Position numbers and translations under genes: made by a program
From: an uncultured bacterium
GTDB taxonomy: Bacteria > Acidobacteriota > Thermoanaerobaculia > Multivoradales > JAHZIX01
Direction: 5' to 3'
Assembly: GCA_965368975.1 (NCBI GenBank)
Contig: CBDUPA010000001.1
Location: forward strand, 828,118 to 892,117
Length of the DNA stretch: 64,000 nucleotides
Shown: positions 54,090-64,000 of the stretch, piece by piece
Layout: every line of letters starts with the position of its first letter
Position numbering within the stretch: position 1 is the first letter of the stretch
Notes under the pieces: model-generated
What the model saw: the letters and a program-made list of their open reading frames with translations, nothing else
Told to the model about the DNA's origin: nothing
The model's database searches: none

Positions 54090-55448
54090 TTACTTGCAGG
54101 TCTTGCGGCCGTTCGGGCCCTTGCACTTGTTCGAGCAGCAGTCGCTGTTGCTGGTGCAGCTGTCGCCCTTGGGGGCGCAGGTCGGGCCGGGGCCGGGGCC
54201 ACCGGTGTCGCCGACGACGGCGTTGTTCGGCACGTTGTTGCCCAGGTCGTTGATGATGGCATCGATCGGCACACCACGGTTCGGGCAGTTGGCGCAGTGG
54301 TGCAGCGCGACCACTAGGTGGTCGCTATAGCCGAGCACCGGCGAGCCCGAGGAGCCGCCCTGGGTGTCACAGTAGTAGCCAATGTCGCCGGGGCCGCCGG
54401 AGCAGGCCGGCGAGTTCAGGCTGTAGACCTCGCAGAAGCCGGAGCCGTCCGATGAGTGGCCGGAGTTGACCGCGATCTGCTTGCCCCAATGTGCGGGATG
54501 CTGGGGGATGTAGATACGCTCGTTGAGCGTCGCACCTGGGCCGCGCATCTGCATGAAGCCGTAGGTACCGGTGGGGTTGGTCGGCAGCTTGACGAGGGTG
54601 TAGTCCAGCGCCGAGTCGGTCTGGACGAAAGTGGCACTGGTGGCCACGATGGTGCCTGGGCAGGCGCCCCAGCTGGCGCAGTTGGTGGAGCAGCTGCGTT
54701 CGGCCATGAACTCGTAGTTGGTGTTGTTGGCCTCACTGCTGTTGGCGACGCAGTGATTGTTGGTCATCAGGTGGCCTTCGTCGCCGACCAGCCAGCCGGT
54801 GCAGGCGTACGTGCCGGAGATCAGCAAGCGGGCGACGGCGCGCGACTTGTCGTAGATGGTCGGCTCGCTGCCCTGGTAGCACTGAGCCCAATCAGCGTCG
54901 TTGCCGCCGCAGATCGCCTTGGCCGGGCCGTCCTCGACCGGGAAGGCGTCGTCGTAGCCGCGCGCGAAGCTGTCGATCTGCACCGCACCCTCGGCCAGCG
55001 GTACGCGCGAGTAGAGCTCGACGATGGCGCGGTCACCGGCGATGTGGATGCCCCAGAAGCCACCGGCTTCGCGACCCATGCGGCCCTTGCCGAGGGCTTC
55101 GTAACGCTCCGAGCGGGTGCCGTCCGGCGCGCGCACGATCAGGGAAGCGCCCTCGGGCAGATCGAAGCGGCCGAAATGCGGCGCGATGTAGCTGGCGCCA
55201 TCGAAGAACAGTTCCTCACTCCACACCAGGCGCGGCGCACGGCTGCTGCGCTCGACGGCCGGCGAGGTGAAGCTCATCTGGATGGCTTCACCGACCTGCA
55301 CGGGACCCTGGGTCATGTCCGGCAGCTGGTTCAGGGTGTCGAGGAAAGCCTCGGTGTTCGCGGTGTGCTCGGCGACTGCCGGCAGGGCCAGCAGGGCGAG
55401 CGCCAGCAGCGCGACCACGGCGAATCGGGGGGTCTGCCTGAAGTTCAT
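54090..55448 (-). CDS. Secreted trypsin-like (S1) serine protease with a C-terminal 6-Cys module
   Basis: Signal peptide, pro-region, ICG mature start, TNNHC / LDY / GGSSGSP triad; GAGG RBS. Confidence 0.88.
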   Translation of the reverse strand: MNFRQTPRFAVVALLALALLALPAVAEHTANTEAFLDTLNQLPDMTQGPVQVGEAIQMSFTSPAVERSSRAPRLVWSEELFFDGASYIAPHFGRFDLPEGASLIVRAPDGTRSERYEALGKGRMGREAGGFWGIHIAGDRAIVELYSRVPLAEGAVQIDSFARGYDDAFPVEDGPAKAICGGNDADWAQCYQGSEPTIYDKSRAVARLLISGTYACTGWLVGDEGHLMTNNHCVANSSEANNTNYEFMAERSCSTNCASWGACPGTIVATSATFVQTDSALDYTLVKLPTNPTGTYGFMQMRGPGATLNERIYIPQHPAHWGKQIAVNSGHSSDGSGFCEVYSLNSPACSGGPGDIGYYCDTQGGSSGSPVLGYSDHLVVALHHCANCPNRGVPIDAIINDLGNNVPNNAVVGDTGGPGPGPTCAPKGDSCTSNSDCCSNKCKGPNGRKTCK

Positions 55449-55624
55449 GATGATCCTCTCGTAATTACAAGACGTACCGATGTTTCCCTGGGCAGCACAC
55501 AGACCGCCCCAGGTTTGAAGGACCCGGTTCCCATCCAGACACAGCTGTTGGATTGAACCCAGAGAGAAGAGTCGGTAGCGCGCACCACGGGCGAGCGAGA
55601 CCGAAGATATGGAAGATGGCCGCG

Positions 55625-55653
55625 AGTATAGCGGCGGCATTTGACCAGTGCAA
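55625..55653 (-). promoter_or_regulatory. Sigma70-like promoter of the protease gene
   Basis: Minus strand TTGCAC-N17-TATACT. Confidence 0.6.
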
Positions 55654-55656
55654 GGG

Positions 55657-55686
55657 CGGATCCCGTACGGACCCCGTCGGGATCCG
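55657..55686. other. Strong intergenic hairpin between divergent genes
   Basis: CGGATCCCG(T)ACGG-ACC-CCGT-CGGGATCCG. Confidence 0.55.
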
Positions 55687-55817
55687 AACTCTGCGGTGCT
55701 GAGCCACCTGCCAGCGTCTTTACCCGCACTGCGGCGTGCCGTACACTGTCGTTGTGCCGCTGTGCGGCATTTTCTGCTCATCTCGCCGCGCAGCGGCATC
55801 GACCAGGAGGCGAACTC

Positions 55818-57053: not shown

Positions 57054-57082
57054 TTGAAATCGCGTGCAATCTAAGCTATACT
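57054..57082 (+). promoter_or_regulatory. Sigma70-like promoter
   Basis: TTGAAA-N17-TATACT. Confidence 0.65.
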
Positions 57083-57174
57083 TGGGGTTGAATGTCGCGA
57101 TTTACCGCAGAGGACCCAACCCGCCTCACCTCTCTCTCATGCCAAATTCTCATAAACCTAAGGAGGTCTCGCCT

Positions 57175-58536
57175 ATGAAGCGTGTGCTCATTGGCTGTCT
57201 CGCCCTCGTGCTTTCGGGGATGGCGATTCCAGCTTTCGCTGGAACCGTGTACATACCGATCATCAACGAGGATGGAGCCGTCACCGGTATCGACTACCAG
57301 ACCAAGCTGTGGGTCTCGAACCAGGGCTCCGTCGACCGCCGTTTCACGACTCTCAACCTGGGTCTCGATACGGACGGTGTGCAACGAGACATCGTCGCTC
57401 AACCGACCACGACCCTGGTGCCCGCGGACTCGACCAAGGTCTTGCAGGTTTCCGGAGCGGCCGCGAACAGCGGCTTGCTGGAAGTGGTCGCGGCTCCGCA
57501 GCTGGCCATCTCAGCGCGCCTGGGGGCAGCTGACAATGGTGTGCTCGGTGCCTCTCTGCCGGTGATCACCTCCGAAAATCTCACGTCGGCGGACGGCGAG
57601 GTCTTCCTGCAGCCCTGGGTGACCGATGCCACCCGAGTTACCGATCTCTACGTCGTCAATCTCGGCCACGAGACGGCCAGCTGTCGAGTCGATGCGGTAC
57701 GGGCCAACGGTACTCTGGTCTTTCCGGGAGCGGTGCTCAGCTTCAAGCCTGTCTCCATGAGGTCCTTTGTCGACGTGCTCGGCATCCTGGGGCAGGAAGT
57801 TCTGGGGGACGTTCGTGCCAGAGTCTCCTGCGACCAAGAATTCTTCGCTTTCTCGACGATCTACGATCTCGAAACGGGAGAGGTTCTGGTGGTCGAGGCG
57901 GCTGGAACGGGTGCCTCTGAGCTGATCGTTCCGGGGACCGAACCGCCACCGCCGCCGCCACCAACCTGTCCGACCGGCGCAACCTGCTTCGAGATCGATG
58001 GTCTCGTCTTCATGCCGGTGGGCAGCGAGCCGGTTCGCCGGTTCACGTTCCCGGTTCCCGCCGGGACCTATCGCAAGCTGCACATGACCATGGATGTCTA
58101 CCATGGCGGCTGGCGTAGCCCGACCTCGGGTCTGCACAACATCTTCTGGCTGGTTCGTGACCGGAACCTCGACATGTTCGGCTATGCCAACCTGCGCGGC
58201 CCGGGCAAGGACACCTTCCTGTTCCGCCACGGCTTCAATATCGCTCAGGGAGACAAGCCGAAGATCGAGCAGGGCTTCAGGGCCGAACCGGGGGTGACGT
58301 ACACCTTCGACTTCACCTACGACGCCGGGGCGCGTCAGCTGACGATGCTGATCTACAACAGGGACACCGGTGACCTGCTGGGGACCTTCATCGACCAGAC
58401 CAACGTGAGCCAGTTCACGTTCAAGACCGGCCAGCGGCTGTTGATGGACATCAGTTTCCCGCCGGGGCTCAACCCGAACGAGCCGCCGACCTTTGGTTGG
58501 CGTTACGAGAACCTGCGCATCGAAGTGATGCCGTAG
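57175..58536 (+). CDS. Secreted hypothetical protein (two beta modules, poly-Pro linker, C-terminal beta-sandwich domain)
   Basis: AAGGAGG RBS; signal peptide ending AFA; PPPPPPPT linker. Confidence 0.75.
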   Translation: MKRVLIGCLALVLSGMAIPAFAGTVYIPIINEDGAVTGIDYQTKLWVSNQGSVDRRFTTLNLGLDTDGVQRDIVAQPTTTLVPADSTKVLQVSGAAANSGLLEVVAAPQLAISARLGAADNGVLGASLPVITSENLTSADGEVFLQPWVTDATRVTDLYVVNLGHETASCRVDAVRANGTLVFPGAVLSFKPVSMRSFVDVLGILGQEVLGDVRARVSCDQEFFAFSTIYDLETGEVLVVEAAGTGASELIVPGTEPPPPPPPTCPTGATCFEIDGLVFMPVGSEPVRRFTFPVPAGTYRKLHMTMDVYHGGWRSPTSGLHNIFWLVRDRNLDMFGYANLRGPGKDTFLFRHGFNIAQGDKPKIEQGFRAEPGVTYTFDFTYDAGARQLTMLIYNRDTGDLLGTFIDQTNVSQFTFKTGQRLLMDISFPPGLNPNEPPTFGWRYENLRIEVMP

Positions 58537-58576
58537 GCTGGGTGCCTGGCCGTTCGTCGGCTGGGTGTCAGAAATG

Positions 58577-58607
58577 AGAAAGCCCCCGCTCGCCGCGGGG
58601 GCTTTCT
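58577..58607 (+). terminator. Intrinsic terminator
   Basis: AGAAAGCCCCCGC-TCGCC-GCGGGGGCTTTCT. Confidence 0.85.
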
Positions 58608-58799
58608 TGGTTCAGGAGGGGTTTCTGCGGGATGCGAGGAACCCGAGGAGATCCACCGCTCGGGTCAGGGGGAGGTGGCTCGGCTCCAACGCGGCAGGTA
58701 GTTTTCGGACCGGAGATTTGTGGATCTTGTCCTGGAATAATCGCCCATGACACCCTCGTGCCGACGAAGCTCTGACTTGATCTCTTCGCGGAGGTGTAG

Positions 58800-59978
58800 A
58801 TGGAACCCTGGATGGAAGTTCTTTTCGGCTGGCTGGTTGTTTTCCTGGTGGCGGGGTACTACCTACGCGAGTACCTGAAGACGCGTCGACAGAAGGCCGC
58901 TGCGGCCGCGGGCCCGCGGACTCCCGCGAACGCAACTCCGATGCCGCTTCCCATAGAGGCTACGCAGGAGCCAGAGGATCTGGAGCCAGAGGATCTGGAG
59001 CCTGAGGATCTGGAATCAGCCCGCGAGAATGCCTTGCTGCAGGTCCGGAAAGACATCGAGGCACATGGTTGGCACGTGGTGGCGGTTGTGAGCAAGGACG
59101 AACCCACCTATCTGTTCACAATTGGCCTGTGGCAGAGCTACCGTCATCCCGAACTCGTCCTCTTTCCGGCCGGTGAGGCCCAGGGTATGTTGCCGAATCT
59201 GCAGCGCCTGTGTCGAGCCGTGCGGGATGGCCGAGTCCTCGATCCCGATGCCATGGATCCCGGTGCCTTCGGTTCCTTTCCCGGTATCTTCTGCAGGGTC
59301 GACACCTTTTGGTACAGCCGCTTCTTGGGAGCGGCGCTGGGACACTACGGACATGCCGAGTTCCCGGTGCTGCAGGTTTTCTGGCCAGATTCCGAGGGGC
59401 TTTTTCCATGGTTTGACGGCTTCGCCGAGAGCTTCTTCTATCACCAGCCACTGCTCTTCGAGTCGAATCCAGAGGCGGCGCGCCTGGACCTCTTTGCCAG
59501 TGCTCGCGACGGCGGCGATGCTTCGTTCTACGACCAGCCGACCGAGGCCCTCTTGATCGACTTGCCACCCGGTCCCGCGATGCGCCTGTTGGACGCCTGG
59601 CGCTGGGAAGCCGAGGAGGACAACGTGCCGTTCAAGGCGACGATCTTTGGTGATCTGCTCACGCGCTCGGCGGCCGGCGAGGTCTGGTTTCTCGACACCG
59701 CGCGCGCTGAGTACTTTCCGCTCTGCACGTCCGAAGAGCAGTGGCGCGAGCAGCTCTCCGAGCCCGCTTATCTGCGTACGCCACCGATCGAAGACCCGAA
59801 CGTGCTCGAGGAGTTCTGGCAGCGGCGCGAGCAGCTACAGCCGGGCCAGGTCTTCTCGTGGAAGGCGCATCCGCTCGCCGGTGGCGAGATGACTTGTGAC
59901 AACTCCCAAGTTCTCGGTCTCGAGGAACACTTGACGCGGACCGGGACGCTGGCGCGCAAGGAGGTGCTGGGAGAGTAG
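58800..59978 (+). CDS. Membrane-anchored DUF4262 domain fused to a DUF1851/Tdi1-immunity-like domain
   Basis: GGAGG RBS; N-terminal TM helix; HGWHV..V...FTIGL...HPEL and LQ..WPD..G.FPW (DUF4262); W.W, T.FGD, G.VWFLD, L.PGQ...K..PL.GG....DN (DUF1851-like). Confidence 0.68.
   Translation: MEPWMEVLFGWLVVFLVAGYYLREYLKTRRQKAAAAAGPRTPANATPMPLPIEATQEPEDLEPEDLEPEDLESARENALLQVRKDIEAHGWHVVAVVSKDEPTYLFTIGLWQSYRHPELVLFPAGEAQGMLPNLQRLCRAVRDGRVLDPDAMDPGAFGSFPGIFCRVDTFWYSRFLGAALGHYGHAEFPVLQVFWPDSEGLFPWFDGFAESFFYHQPLLFESNPEAARLDLFASARDGGDASFYDQPTEALLIDLPPGPAMRLLDAWRWEAEEDNVPFKATIFGDLLTRSAAGEVWFLDTARAEYFPLCTSEEQWREQLSEPAYLRTPPIEDPNVLEEFWQRREQLQPGQVFSWKAHPLAGGEMTCDNSQVLGLEEHLTRTGTLARKEVLGE
58968..59012 (+). 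repeat. 15-bp in-frame tandem repeat x3 (EPEDL)
   Basis: GAGCC(A/T)GAGGATCTG three times. Confidence 0.85.
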
Positions 59979-60080
59979 GTGAGTCTGAGCCGATCCAGTC
60001 CCACCTGGGCAAGACATCGAGTAGGAAGGGCGGTGCAGTAGAATGTCGGCACATCAGCTTCGCAAGCAAGGAGTCTTTTC

Positions 60081-63000
60081 ATGCCGCCTGCTATGCCGCC
60101 GCCCACACCGGCCCATGCCTTTGACCCGATCGAGGCTTCCTCCGACAAGCTCGATCATCTGCTGAACGACAAGCCGATCCTCTGGGTTGGTGCCGGACTG
60201 AGTGTCGCGGCAGGGTATCCGACAACCGGAGAGTTGCTCGAGGCTATGCGGCAGCGCGTCGAAGGAGAGCGAGACAAGCTCGACGTTACCGAGCCGTTCT
60301 ACGCTGTGACCGACACCTTCCTGAGGAAGCAGAGTCGCGGCGTCCTGAGTCAACTGCTTCACGGTCTGTTCGCCCAGCCGCGCCAACTAACGGAAAGTCA
60401 CCGAGCCTTGGCTCGCCTGGCTGGAGCGGGCTGCTTTGCGGCGATTGTCACGACCAACTTCGACGACCTGCTCGAGCGTGCACTCGGCGAGGCACAGGTG
60501 CCATTTCTGAAGCAGGTACAGGAAGATAACAAGGCGCTGCACGAAGGCGATAGCGTGCGCTTGTACAAGCTACACGGTGACTTCGGCAACTGGCAGAAGA
60601 TCATTCTGGCGGGCGATGCCTACCAGCGTTTCGGCAGCACGTATCCGTTCTTGCAGGCCGAGCTGGACCAGTTGCTGCGCCGGCATTGCGTTTTGTTTGC
60701 AGGTTGTTCGATGCTGGACCCGCGGATCCTGGACTGGTTGGCAGAGTTGGACGACGAGGGGCAGGCTGAGCTCAAGCTTTGGCGGCCCCTGCTGACCGAG
60801 AAGTCCTGGAATGAAGCACTGCAGGCTCAGTGGCCTAGGGGCAACGTGTCCGGCGCCCTGCGGCGGGCGCCGCTGCGGCCGGTGTTCTTGCAGAGTCACG
60901 CGCAGCTGCCGCAGCTGTTGCAAGCCGTGGCGGAGAAGCGAGTGCCCGAGCCTGTGGATGTTCAGGGAGAGCGGCTGGAGCTGGAGATCGAGGTCACGCG
61001 GGACGGCTGGAAGCTGGCGTTGCAGGGTTGCGAGGGCTGGTCACGCCCCGATCCGCTCGCGGACGCTGGGCTGGTCGCGGAGGTCAAGGCACTGCGCGAT
61101 CTCGGGGTCCGGCCGCTGCCGCTCGGCGATGCTAATGTGGCGGTGCCGGAAGTGGCGGATGTGCTGGCGCTGTTGCGGCAGCTGACCCTCTCTTTGGGAG
61201 ACCGGCTCACTGCGATCTTGCTTTCCCACCAAGCGCGAGACCTGCTCGCGGCAAGGGTGCGCGCCAACCTAGCTGGTGATCCGCCGTTCTTGCTGCTCCG
61301 TTTCCGGCCGGCGCAACTCGGGGACGACGACCTGCGCCAGCGTACCGATCGCGCGCTGGCCTTGCCCTGGGAGCTGCTGCGGCTCGATGGAGAAGCGCCG
61401 GTGGAGCACCGGACCTTAGACCTGGCGCGCGAGGCGGTGATGCCGGACTTGGAGGGGCTGCAGGCCCCCGAGCAGCCGTTGACCGTGCTGGCCACGGTCG
61501 CCGCGCCGGAGGACGCGAATCCGCTCAACGTCGAAGACGAGATGTACCAGCTGTGGTGGGCGCTCGGACGGGCGGATGAGGAACAGCGTTTGCGGGTCGC
61601 GGATCTCGGGACGTTGGAGGATCTGGTGGCCGCGGTCGGCCGGCATCGACCGCCGGTGGTCCACTTTTCCGGTCATGGACGGCCCGGAGTTCTCCTGTTC
61701 GAAGACGACGAGGCGGGCAGCGATCCTGTGCCGGTCGGCACAGTGGCGGACCGCTTGCGCGATGCCGGATGGCTGCCGCGTCTGATCTACCTCTCGGCCT
61801 GCCACGGTGCGACCGTCGAGGTTCCGGAGGGGAGTGAGGCCCCGGTAGCCGGTACCAAAGAAGCGGAGAAGGAGAGCGAGCGCCTGGCGACCGAGGCCAA
61901 GGTCTGGGAGCCTGCTGAGCCAGCGACTGCCGCTACCCTTCATCGAGCCGGTTTGCAACAGGTCGTCGCCTACTTCGGCCCGGTCGGTGACCGCCAGGCT
62001 ACCCGTGCCGCGGCTGCTTTCTACACCCGCCTGGCGCGCGGTACCACGGCTCGGGTGGCGTTGCGCGAGGCGCGGCGGGTATCGACCGAGCCTCTGGTAC
62101 AGGATGGTAAGCCCGCCTATGTGTACCCTCTGGGCTGGGCCCAGCTTGCGCTCTACCACCGCGGTTCCGACTATCCGACCGCCCTACCCACCGTCGCCGC
62201 CACCGAGCCCGAGCATCGGCCCCAGAGCCACGAGCGCAGCTGGGACGCTCTCGACCATCGTGGCGGCAGCGTTCAGCGCCTGTGCCACGGCTTTGTCGGC
62301 CGCCGGCGACCGCGCGCGGAACTGATTCGACGCTGGCGGGAGGGCCAACGGATGCTGGTCGTGCAGGGTCTGGGAGGTCTGGGCAAGACCGCGCTGTGTA
62401 CCGAGGTCGCACCGATCCTGGCGCGGCACCTGGGCGAGGGGACGCCGGTACTGGCACTCGATGGTCGGGCTGCAGCCGCGAAGGAACAGGCCAGCCCTGT
62501 AGAAAGCCTGTGGCAGCAGGTAGCGGCGGCGCGCTCGGATGAGGCATGGAGCCAGAAGCTGGCAGGCTTGCAGCAAGAGGGGATCGACGGCGAAGCGCTG
62601 GCGCAGGCTGTGCTGCTCCTGCAGCAGCTCGAAGGCCGGCTCCTGGTCTATCTGGACGACGCAGAAAGCCTGCAGGTGCCGCTCGGAGAAGGAGACCTGG
62701 GCCGGTGGGGCGACGAAGAGGTCCAGGACTTCTGGACCAGTTTGAGCGCCGCCGTGGTCCGCCAAGGAGCCTTGGGTGTCCTCGCCTCGACGCGCTACTG
62801 GCCCGAGGAGACGACTCTCAAGGCCCGCGTTGCACTGCCGGTGATGAGTCCCTACGAGATCGTGCGCCTGCTCGGCTGGCAGCCGACTTTGCAGCGCCTA
62901 CCCTCGGCGGATAAGGACTGGTTGGTGCCGAAGCTCGACGGGCACCCGCGTACCGTCGAGTTCCTGGAGACGGCAGTCGCGAAGCGGTTGGAAGAGGTGG

Positions 63001-64000
63001 ACTCCTTCGGTGGCGGTGTAGGTTGGGTGGGAGACTGGCGGCGGCAGATTCTGGAGCCGGTCCTCCCCAAGACGCGGCAGAAGATCGACGCCAATTTGCT
63101 TCTGGCGGAGGTTTGGGGATCGCTGTCCGAGCCGGTGCGGGAGTTTCTCGGCCAGTGCAGTGTCTTGGAAGAGGCTGTGCCGGAGGGAGCGTTACGGGCT
63201 CTCGAATCCGAAGCTGGAGCGCTGCGGCGAGCCTTGGGATCTGGCTTGCTGAGCGCCTTCTTGCCGCCGGTGGGAAAGGCGGCCTGGTGGGGGCTGCATC
63301 GGTTGGTGAGTGAGAAGGTGCGGCAGTCGTGGTCGGGAGATGGCGGGGAGGCACACCGGCGTTTGGGGCGGTGGTTCCGGGAGCAGTTCGAAGAGGTTGG
63401 TGATGTCCTTTGGGCGATGCGGGCGGTCGACCACCTGTGTCGGGCGGGGGCGGGTGATGAGGCGTGGCCGGTGGCGCAGCACCTCGTCAAGTGGCTGCGC
63501 GGTGGCGGCCGCTATCGGGAGGCTCTGGTGTGGGTCGAGCGGGCGCTGGCGGCGGCGCCGAGTGGGGAACAGCTGGGGATGGCCTTGGCGTTCCAGGCGC
63601 AGATTCTCCGTATGGCGGGGAAGCTTCGGCCGGCGGGGGAAAAGGAGTTGCTAGGGGCGCTCGATCTTGTGCCCGCCTCGGAGCATGGCTTTGTTCTGAG
63701 CGAATTGGCAGCGCTGGCCAAGATGCAAGGTAAGTTGCCTCAGGCTGCTTCCCACTTGCAGCGAGCGGTCGAGGTTGAGGAGGGCCTGGAGGAGGGGCCG
63801 AATGTTGCTTCTCTTCTGCACTCGCTTGCCGGCGTGCTTCAGGCTCAGGGCGATCTAGTAGGTGCCCGCGCGTATCTGGAGCGTTCGCTGTCGATTTCGG
63901 AGCGCGTGTTTGGTACCGAGGATCACCCGTCTGTGGCTGCGTCGTTGCACTCGCTTGCCGGCGTGCTTCAGGCTCAGGGCGATCTAGTAGGTGCCCGCGC
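60081..64000 (+). CDS. SIR2-CHAT-STAND(NB-ARC-like)-TPR NLR-like protein, 3'-truncated by the window edge
   Basis: AAGGAG RBS. Manual translation gives WVGAGLS (60189), TTNFD (60450), KLHG (60567), GCSMLD; LPWELL, HFSGHG (61662), LSACH (61791); FVGR, GLGGLGKT (62367), LVYLDDAE, DGHP; then TPRs HPSVAASLHSLAGVLQAQGDL. No terminated ORF is listed in this frame. Confidence 0.88.
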   Translation, partial: MPPAMPPPTPAHAFDPIEASSDKLDHLLNDKPILWVGAGLSVAAGYPTTGELLEAMRQRVEGERDKLDVTEPFYAVTDTFLRKQSRGVLSQLLHGLFAQPRQLTESHRALARLAGAGCFAAIVTTNFDDLLERALGEAQVPFLKQVQEDNKALHEGDSVRLYKLHGDFGNWQKIILAGDAYQRFGSTYPFLQAELDQLLRRHCVLFAGCSMLDPRILDWLAELDDEGQAELKLWRPLLTEKSWNEALQAQWPRGNVSGALRRAPLRPVFLQSHAQLPQLLQAVAEKRVPEPVDVQGERLELEIEVTRDGWKLALQGCEGWSRPDPLADAGLVAEVKALRDLGVRPLPLGDANVAVPEVADVLALLRQLTLSLGDRLTAILLSHQARDLLAARVRANLAGDPPFLLLRFRPAQLGDDDLRQRTDRALALPWELLRLDGEAPVEHRTLDLAREAVMPDLEGLQAPEQPLTVLATVAAPEDANPLNVEDEMYQLWWALGRADEEQRLRVADLGTLEDLVAAVGRHRPPVVHFSGHGRPGVLLFEDDEAGSDPVPVGTVADRLRDAGWLPRLIYLSACHGATVEVPEGSEAPVAGTKEAEKESERLATEAKVWEPAEPATAATLHRAGLQQVVAYFGPVGDRQATRAAAAFYTRLARGTTARVALREARRVSTEPLVQDGKPAYVYPLGWAQLALYHRGSDYPTALPTVAATEPEHRPQSHERSWDALDHRGGSVQRLCHGFVGRRRPRAELIRRWREGQRMLVVQGLGGLGKTALCTEVAPILARHLGEGTPVLALDGRAAAAKEQASPVESLWQQVAAARSDEAWSQKLAGLQQEGIDGEALAQAVLLLQQLEGRLLVYLDDAESLQVPLGEGDLGRWGDEEVQDFWTSLSAAVVRQGALGVLASTRYWPEETTLKARVALPVMSPYEIVRLLGWQPTLQRLPSADKDWLVPKLDGHPRTVEFLETAVAKRLEEVDSFGGGVGWVGDWRRQILEPVLPKTRQKIDANLLLAEVWGSLSEPVREFLGQCSVLEEAVPEGALRALESEAGALRRALGSGLLSAFLPPVGKAAWWGLHRLVSEKVRQSWSGDGGEAHRRLGRWFREQFEEVGDVLWAMRAVDHLCRAGAGDEAWPVAQHLVKWLRGGGRYREALVWVERALAAAPSGEQLGMALAFQAQILRMAGKLRPAGEKELLGALDLVPASEHGFVLSELAALAKMQGKLPQAASHLQRAVEVEEGLEEGPNVASLLHSLAGVLQAQGDLVGARAYLERSLSISERVFGTEDHPSVAASLHSLAGVLQAQGDLVGAR
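63817..64000 (+). repeat. Nucleotide-identical TPR repeat units (129-bp period)
   Basis: The 55 nt at 63817-63871 are identical to 63946-64000. Confidence 0.9.

Follow-up and report, generated by a model that had tools for sequence, protein, structure and literature searches.

The 64,000-nucleotide window analysed here is the right end of contig CBDUPA010000001.1 (C1, 892,117 bp) from an uncultured acidobacterium. By the names of the homologues of its thymidine phosphorylase, the host is probably of the Thermoanaerobaculia kind. Its last part is occupied by a gene for a large protein that joins a SIR2 domain, a CHAT protease, a STAND NTPase and a TPR array in one chain. The gene is read as a single frame of 1306 codons on the forward strand (60081..63998) that contains no stop, as the initial annotation had noted for a frame of more than 1300 codons. 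No stop or frameshift separates the domains within this frame. The stop is missing from the window because C1 ends exactly at window base 64000. A scan of 58500-60400 yielded no promoter or terminator.

The 3′ end of the gene was recovered by extending the contig, as the initial annotation had recommended. C1 ends with the same 42 nt with which another contig, C3, begins, and on C3 the frame continues for 83 codons before its stop. The C3-encoded tail matches TPR_12 (E 4.9e-13) and agrees with the family consensus at its conserved C-terminal cap. The full product, joined from the C1 and C3 parts, is at least 1389 residues long. The assembly breaks between C1 and C3 because of a 55-bp exact repeat inside the TPR array. 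More TPR units could be collapsed there, making 1389 residues a minimum. The near-identity of the TPR units suggests that repeats of the sensor were recently duplicated or homogenised. Tandem Repeats Finder reported no array in 63000-64000. When the gene's own genome was searched with tblastn at 1e-3 for paralogues, only the gene itself was returned.

The N-terminal enzyme is a SIR2 domain of the ThsA type. Pfam SIR2_2 matches residues 121-229 (E 2.8e-23, 83 bits vs a cut-off of 24.5), and the landmarks of the fold are in place, namely the GAGxS NAD loop at 37-41, Asn126 and His165. The best PADLOC match is ThsA (3e-24), with residues 26-286 aligned to model positions 16-277 of 478. All 22 PADLOC matches at E ≤ 0.1 are SIR2-region models (ThsA, PDC-S25/S65, pAgo-associated SIR2, LmuA and Dsr1/2). 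When the Protein Data Bank (PDB) was searched with the family profile, built from an alignment of 31 full-length homologues (A1), ThsA 6lhx matched across the entire SIR2 fold (E 1.6e-27), with KomC and DSR2 ranking after ThsA. With the single sequence, 6lhx is matched at E 4.2e-15, and N126 and H165 are aligned to N112 and H152, which we take to be the catalytic residues of ThsA. The mutant names in PDB titles agree with this assumption, and 8bto, deposited as a mutant ThsA, has Ala at the Asn position. With both the SIR2_2 fold and the Asn/His pair, the domain belongs to the SIR2 NADase effectors.

The second enzyme is a CHAT protease. Pfam CHAT matches residues 427-688 (E 1.3e-13, 51.5 bits vs a gathering cut-off of 24), and the dyad is formed by His532-Gly533 and Cys574, all three residues being invariant in A1. 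Both the score and the dyad assign the module to CHAT. With the profile, the core matches PDB 8tl0 (E 2.5e-7), where both the His-Gly and the Cys fall on their counterparts. This is the only solved CHAT relative found by sequence, and the similarity spans about 110 residues around the dyad. The 8tl0 structure is that of a type III CRISPR SAVED-CHAT protease. In the conservation scan of A1, the least conserved stretch of the whole protein is a charged loop directly after the catalytic Cys. Between SIR2 and the CHAT core lies a region of 135 residues, which we call ‘mid’. It has no Pfam match at E ≤ 0.1 and invariably accompanies CHAT among family members.

The third module has the motifs of a STAND NTPase: FVGRR at 738-742, GLGGLGKT at 763-770, LLVYLDDAE at 854-862, STR at 903-905 and GHPR at 954-957. 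We presume that the last four correspond to Walker A, Walker B, the sensor-1 Arg (Arg905) and GxP, respectively. Pfam AAA_16 matches residues 738-885 at E 5.4e-6, where its 27.4 bits stay under the cut-off of 32.6. NACHT (PF05729) reaches 14.7 bits vs a cut-off of 26.7 (E 0.027), so the module is not placed in the NACHT clade. The same region of a relative (P0004, residues 705-1110) falls with AAA_16, NB-ARC, NACHT and nSTAND clusters of the Atlas at 0.95-0.97, which is taken as a lead only. A sequence search of the PDB gave no meaningful match for the STAND part. P-loop motifs, a helical/winged-helix part and repeats together assign the module to the STAND superfamily. The repeats are of a regular kind, with TPR_12 (E 1.5e-18) and TPR_10 (E 5.5e-15) at 1242-1302, and the array matches the kinesin light chain in the PDB at 1.1e-44 with the family profile.

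All ten motifs quoted in the initial annotation are present, namely GAGLS at 37, TTNFD at 124, KLHG at 163, GCS at 208, HFSGHG at 528, LSACH at 571, FVGR at 738, GLGGLGKT at 763, LDDA at 858 and GHP at 954. Its domain order of SIR2, CHAT, STAND and TPR was correct, as the profile searches return the four modules with AAA_16 below threshold. The profile check that it advised for SIR2 and CHAT comes out above cut-off for both.

Table 1. Features of the receptor gene and its surroundings (window coordinates unless a contig is named)
Feature	Position	Strand	Basis or remark
Coding sequence, residues 1-1306	60081..64000 (codons to 63998)	+	Single open frame, cut by contig end
Shine-Dalgarno box AAGGAG	60068..60073	+	7 nt 5′ of ATG, read directly
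SIR2 (ThsA-type NADase) domain, residues ~21-290	60141..60950	+	Pfam, PADLOC and PDB comparisons
‘mid’, N-terminal extension of the CHAT module, residues 291-425	60951..61355	+	Present in SIR2-bearing and SIR2-less relatives
CHAT (caspase-like, clan CD) protease core, residues 426-700	61356..62180	+	Pfam, PDB profile
Variable charged loop, residues ~577-612, directly after catalytic Cys	61809..61916	+	A1 conservation scan
STAND P-loop NTPase and helical/winged-helix part, residues ~736-1100	62286..63380	+	Motifs, sub-threshold Pfam, Atlas lead
TPR array (kinesin-light-chain / TPR_10-TPR_12 type), presumed sensor	63381..63998	+	Pfam, PDB; cut by contig end
55-bp exact repeat, copy 1	63817..63871	+	blastn of C1 tail vs genome
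55-bp exact repeat, copy 2	63946..64000	+	129 bp spacing; blastn
3′ end of the gene on contig C3	C3:43-292		In frame, 83 further codons and stop at C3:290-292
Two genes directly upstream, same strand	57064-59978	+	490-residue open reading frame; 392-residue DUF4262 protein (E 7e-31)
569-residue protein	54090-55799	-	C-terminal Trypsin_2 (E 5e-17), long family-less N-terminal part
HAMP + SpoIIE (PP2C) phosphatase, 779 residues	46082-48421	+	Looks like an ordinary signalling gene

Relatives were collected by a word-indexed search, which gave 90 proteins, and by phmmer, run exhaustively with residues 1-1100 as the query over 1.84 billion representatives at 50% identity, which gave 4549 matches at E ≤ 1e-3, of which 218 reach E ≤ 1e-30. 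We sorted the 225 proteins retrieved with domain hidden Markov models derived from A1. The full SIR2-mid-CHAT-STAND architecture was found in 60 proteins (query included), mid-CHAT-STAND in 41, CHAT-STAND in 44 and SIR2 only in 20, and the remainder consists of smaller classes and non-matching TPR proteins. The survey suggested in the initial annotation thus yields an unnamed, uncharacterised family of dozens of proteins in several bacterial phyla, not a one-off fusion. In databases these proteins are called just ‘tetratricopeptide repeat protein’ or ‘CHAT domain-containing protein’.

A pattern scan of one representative genome per species gave 109 relatives. Of 25 loci examined, SIR2 is on the protein in 12, and their sources are Thermoanaerobaculia, other Acidobacteriota, Myxococcota (Kofleriaceae and Polyangia), Planctomycetota, Desulfobacterium and a metagenome-assembled genome of Nitrospinia. 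At one further locus (L007, Archangiaceae) the pattern-scan match covers the SIR2 region, but the frame is split.

CHAT-STAND-TPR is the constant chassis of this family, and SIR2 is one occupant of an N-terminal slot. The slot holds SIR2, TIR (P0050, P0174, P0178 and P0192), EAD5 (P0049), EAD5 and SIR2 together (P0024 and P0027) or a domain of ~100 residues without assigned family (P0033). It can also be empty, with nothing N-terminal of mid-CHAT-STAND-TPR. EAD5 was defined as an adaptor of NTP-dependent conflict systems (PMC7159879).

Slot exchange was followed on a tree of the CHAT-STAND core (FastTree, 120 rows, midpoint root), from which 105 of the 225 proteins were left out for a CHAT match below 200 residues or a STAND match below 250 residues. 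The SIR2 label needs 23 changes on this tree, and at least 13 of them are forced by well-supported branches. Some rows scored as SIR2-free may be truncated gene calls on short contigs, and the existence of SIR2-less forms rests on the loci examined. Three loci in acidobacterial metagenome-assembled genomes (L010, L011 and L039) have upstream genes in common. The chassis of L010 is without SIR2, that of L011 has SIR2, and L039 is matched from query residue 2. SIR2 was therefore gained or lost in place. No SIR2 was found within ±10 kb at any of 11 SIR2-less loci, with all six positive controls recovered, so CHAT can be the sole effector. The CHAT dyad is intact in 32 of the 41 chassis proteins without SIR2.

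The catalytic residues are well kept in the 60 full-architecture proteins. In SIR2, N126 is kept in 55 (four gaps and one Cys) and H165 in 56; for CHAT, the counts are 56 for H532 and 58 for C574. R741, K769 of Walker A and D859 of Walker B of the NTPase are kept in all 60. Purifying selection therefore acts on the switch as well as on both effectors. The His/Cys dyad, which the initial annotation had judged apparently intact, is intact in the query, and family-wide conservation holds for both catalytic centres.

The SIR2 subtype is not confined to this chassis. At 40-46% identity it is fused elsewhere to another CHAT, TIR, NB-ARC and TPR, AbiJ_NTD5, Metallophos with NACHT and FGE-sulfatase, AAA_15/21 ATPases and a sigma-70-like domain. 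With so many partners it behaves as a defence effector module. Two of these proteins have tandem effectors of their own. One (P0194, 1481 residues) consists of SIR2, a calcineurin-like phosphoesterase, NACHT and an FGE-sulfatase sensor, and the other (P0191, 728 residues) joins SIR2 with TIR.

We conceive of the protein as a single-gene STAND receptor of the NLR/Avs-like kind, part of a biological-conflict system, in which the protease is built in and the NADase can be exchanged, and we find it fairly likely that it works so, most likely in anti-phage abortive infection. Its probable function is defence by cell suicide. The computed basis of this reading is the intact reading frame, the four homologies, the conserved catalytic residues of three enzymes, the modular slot, the lack of a conserved partner gene and the patchy distribution. 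What is inferred is how the receptor is triggered, oligomerises and switches on its protease by proximity, what CHAT cleaves, and that the receptor serves defence at all.

The proposed course is as follows. First, the C-terminal TPR array would bind a protein derived from the invader, and target binding would free the STAND NTPase for ATP binding and oligomerisation. Second, oligomerisation would gather the N-terminal modules. CHAT, as the fixed chassis part, would then be activated by induced proximity, like caspase-9 on the apoptosome, and the ThsA-type SIR2 in the slot would be assembled into an active NADase. Third, proteolysis and NAD+ depletion would proceed in parallel and stop the infected cell. 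There are precedents for such steps, as Avs tetramerisation activates a fused trypsin protease and a second effector (10.64898/2026.08.25.746987), and bacterial Apaf-1-like STANDs can have a caspase-like N-terminus (PMC13581612).

The two enzymes could also work in sequence instead of in parallel. In such a cascade, which the initial annotation had raised as CHAT cleaving to release SIR2, oligomerised CHAT would cut the polypeptide or an inhibitory segment and thereby release or license SIR2, so that SIR2 alone would kill and CHAT would serve for processing. A protease that is activated by STAND and coupled to a second effector is known in Avs2-trypsin-MBL (10.64898/2026.08.25.746987), CHAT proteases act in proteolytic cascades, with the SAVED-CHAT protease 8tl0 as the closest solved CHAT, and the pairing of SIR2 with CHAT recurs in P0185, where the CHAT is unrelated. 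The variable loop after Cys574 would be the counterpart of the caspase p20/p10 intersubunit linker, and a variable loop at this position makes autoprocessing of CHAT plausible.

However, the junction between SIR2 and CHAT in A1 is short, consisting of a conserved ‘AP’ and up to ~6 residues, and offers no flexible linker to cut. In P0102 and P0107, the CHAT His and/or Cys are gone and yet the SIR2 Asn and His are retained; SIR2 is therefore not strictly dependent on CHAT catalysis. The chassis proteins that have the dyad intact but no N-terminal effector, and the 11 loci without a nearby SIR2 (see above), point the same way, since CHAT must then have targets other than SIR2. We consider the sequential course unlikely, and the release of SIR2 by CHAT does not fare well against these data.

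Another possibility is that the two enzymes communicate through a small molecule, as in a fused counterpart of type IV Thoeris. SIR2 or TIR would make a NAD-derived product that binds ‘mid’ and switches on CHAT. Both enzymatic occupants of the slot found so far, SIR2 and TIR, are NAD+-processing folds, and in type IV Thoeris N7-cADPR, a cyclic ADP-ribose (cADPR) isomer made by TIR, activates a caspase-like effector (10.64898/2025.12.03.692087). The 135 residues of ‘mid’, to which no function is assigned, would offer a place for the ligand.

On the other hand, no ligand-binding family was detected in the protein, and the SIR2-less and EAD5-only forms retain the CHAT dyad. The STAND-TPR sensor already offers an activation route. 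Moreover, ThsA-type SIR2 domains are presumably NAD+ hydrolases, not signal makers, in agreement with the molecule names of PDB entries. Thus signalling in cis appears very improbable to us.

A more speculative idea is that the receptor is a single-chain ‘apoptosome’ in which the NAD+-processing enzyme of the slot (SIR2 or TIR) and the protease regulate each other, either via a NAD-derived ligand bound to ‘mid’ or via autoprocessing after Cys574. We give it little credence. If true, it would be a two-key, two-weapon death switch, against which phage counter-defences that restore NAD+ or block the protease would be insufficient singly.

Bacterial STAND/NLR-like receptors are a main model for the evolution of innate immune receptors. 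To our knowledge, nearly all characterised ones have one effector, usually a nuclease. The present family is a natural series with SIR2, TIR, an adaptor, nothing or a dead protease on one chassis, in which the control of two unrelated enzymes by a single oligomerising switch can be studied. The series also raises the question of whether a caspase-like domain works as the apoptosome does when it is attached directly to STAND. In addition, it gives a concrete domain name to dozens of entries now labelled merely by their tetratricopeptide repeats.

Among known systems, Avs (AVAST) is close in layout, and the NLR/Avs analogy drawn in the initial annotation fits. Avs proteins, such as the SIR2-STAND Avs5 and the protease-bearing Avs1 and Avs2, are likewise encoded by single genes and laid out in three parts, with the effector at the N-terminus, then the STAND NTPase, and TPR-like repeats at the C-terminus. 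Their effectors include SIR2 or proteases, and the target-induced oligomerisation described for them is expected here (PMC13581612, 10.64898/2026.08.25.746987). Unlike Avs, the present protein has two tandem enzymatic modules with CHAT fixed in the chassis, and its TPRs are regular repeats of the KLC/TPR_10 type.

ThsA of Thoeris, a SIR2-SLOG NAD+ hydrolase, is the closest solved relative of the present SIR2, with Asn and His aligned. Unlike ThsA, the present protein is without the SLOG half, as only the SIR2 part of the ThsA model is matched, and neither a SLOG nor a TIR family is seen in the protein or its scanned neighbours. Type I Thoeris, defined by SLOG and an adjacent TIR gene, is therefore not what is found here. 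Activation must come from the STAND module and not from cADPR isomers. The protein is not Dsr1 or Dsr2 either, which score 13.9 and 21.1 bits in NCBIfam vs a cut-off of 1400, and NCBIfam gave nothing beyond these sub-threshold matches.

Csx29 of Craspase is a CHAT protease of defence. With it and other CHAT or caspase-like defence proteases the present protein shares a CHAT fold with a His/Cys dyad and a protease that is controlled by an immune sensor or forms one chain with it. They differ in the sensor, which is STAND-TPR here vs SAVED in SAVED-CHAT, TIR signalling in type IV Thoeris, CRISPR in Csx29 and WD40 in Apaf-1-like STANDs, and in the extra NADase that stands N-terminal of the protease here. 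The bacterial Apaf-1-like STANDs are alike in having a caspase-like domain directly on STAND (PMC13581612). Type IV Thoeris consists of a separate TIR and a caspase-like effector; no TIR is present in the protein or its scanned neighbours, and sister proteins of the chassis family have TIR fused.

The EAD-linked NTP-dependent conflict systems described by Kaur, Burroughs, Iyer and Aravind in 2020 (PMC7159879) are alike in combining an NTPase switch, a peptidase and swappable effectors, and sister proteins of ours carry an N-terminal EAD5. The present protein has no EAD, and the term ‘SIR2’ is absent from the main text of that paper. The SIR2-CHAT-STAND architecture was not found described in the open full-text literature, in line with the initial annotation, which knew of no characterised system of this kind, although supplements (PMC7159879, and Supplementary Tables 2-3 of PMC13581612, a study of 589 STAND clades) may list the clade. 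Both the components and their logic have been described before; no description was found there of SIR2 and CHAT in tandem on STAND-TPR, or of the chassis with a swappable NADase slot.

Several observations weigh against an anti-phage receptor with two working effectors. The STAND assignment is based on motifs, the sub-threshold AAA_16 match and the Atlas lead. PADLOC-DB, which presumably contains Avs models, gave SIR2-type models only, so the protein is not of a recognised Avs type. The CHAT dyad is lost in 3 of the 60 full-architecture members (P0102, P0107 and P0117) and, through replacement of the catalytic Cys, in 9 of the 41 SIR2-less members. Since dyad-less members exist, CHAT also has a non-catalytic role, presumably scaffolding, which the favoured model leaves unexplained. 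Among records of mobile elements, 23 plasmid records match in the SIR2 part only, none covering ≥80% of the query, and phage records gave no match.

The nine SIR2-less proteins with a replaced Cys (P0134, P0147, P0160, P0161, P0163, P0164, P0168, P0190 and P0217) retain Walker A and B, and their Cys is changed mostly to Pro or Arg. Eight of them are in the tree and lie in one clade. They look like receptors without an obvious effector, perhaps partner-dependent sensors or decoys.

The genomic context adds to the same side. Upstream of the gene are those for a DUF4262 protein, a family-less open reading frame, a reductase, a trypsin-like peptidase and RNase D, and downstream on C3 are KAS III and MFS and ABC/HlyD transporters; there is no defence island here, and PADLOC gave no match in the five upstream neighbours tested. 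At 12 homologous loci, 107 of 109 selected flanking open reading frames were scanned for defence genes (two of L027 were left out). The specific-looking ones in PADLOC were only IetA (two) and IetS (one), a descriptive count without background control, and the other matches were generic kinase or AAA+ models. The defence-island context of the family is weak.

It could thus be that the receptor is not anti-phage at all, but a STAND protein of regulated cell death or signalling in development, kin discrimination or stress response, or else a decaying gene without a role. Besides the weak context, this is favoured by the concentration of the family in social or complex-lifestyle lineages (Myxococcota, Acidobacteriota and Planctomycetota, as soil and sediment bacteria), a pattern that echoes the theme of PMC7159879 and PMC8195603, and by the clade that has neither SIR2 nor the CHAT Cys. 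However, the reading frame is intact with a good Shine-Dalgarno site, the catalytic residues are clearly constrained, and effector swapping with a patchy distribution is typical of conflict systems. On balance we regard a role outside phage defence as quite unlikely. Of the tandem-effector anti-phage device proposed in the initial annotation, the two effectors stand, as both catalytic centres are conserved, and the anti-phage part stays conjectural, the gene lying outside a defence island and the context at the 12 loci being weak.

No conserved partner gene was found across the 25 loci and the present locus, where 1787 flanking stop-to-stop open reading frames of ≥90 residues were compared. 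The widest clusters of flanking frames extend to five loci only, with inconsistent positions, and real synteny is limited to L010, L011 and L039. Without a conserved neighbour, the receptor is a single-gene system.

A search of 40 genomes from the same family or order gave no full-length copy, the best match there having 44% identity in CHAT only. Five DNA sequencing runs contain at most 0.08 of the sampled words of the sequence, and no RNA run was listed as containing it. One genome of the same order (G030) has at least two paralogous CHAT-STAND proteins on contigs C403 and C342 (L083), with open frames of 1297 and 1315 residues and 44-45% identity in CHAT, and a separate SIR2-like open reading frame of 329 residues on contig C510.

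The two genes directly upstream of the receptor gene were not seen beside its homologues at other loci, and the 490-residue product has no Pfam or PADLOC family. The stretch that holds these two genes has a slightly low G+C content of 0.60-0.63. The G+C content is slightly low from ~55.5 to 61 kb, at 0.60-0.64 vs ~0.66 for the contig.

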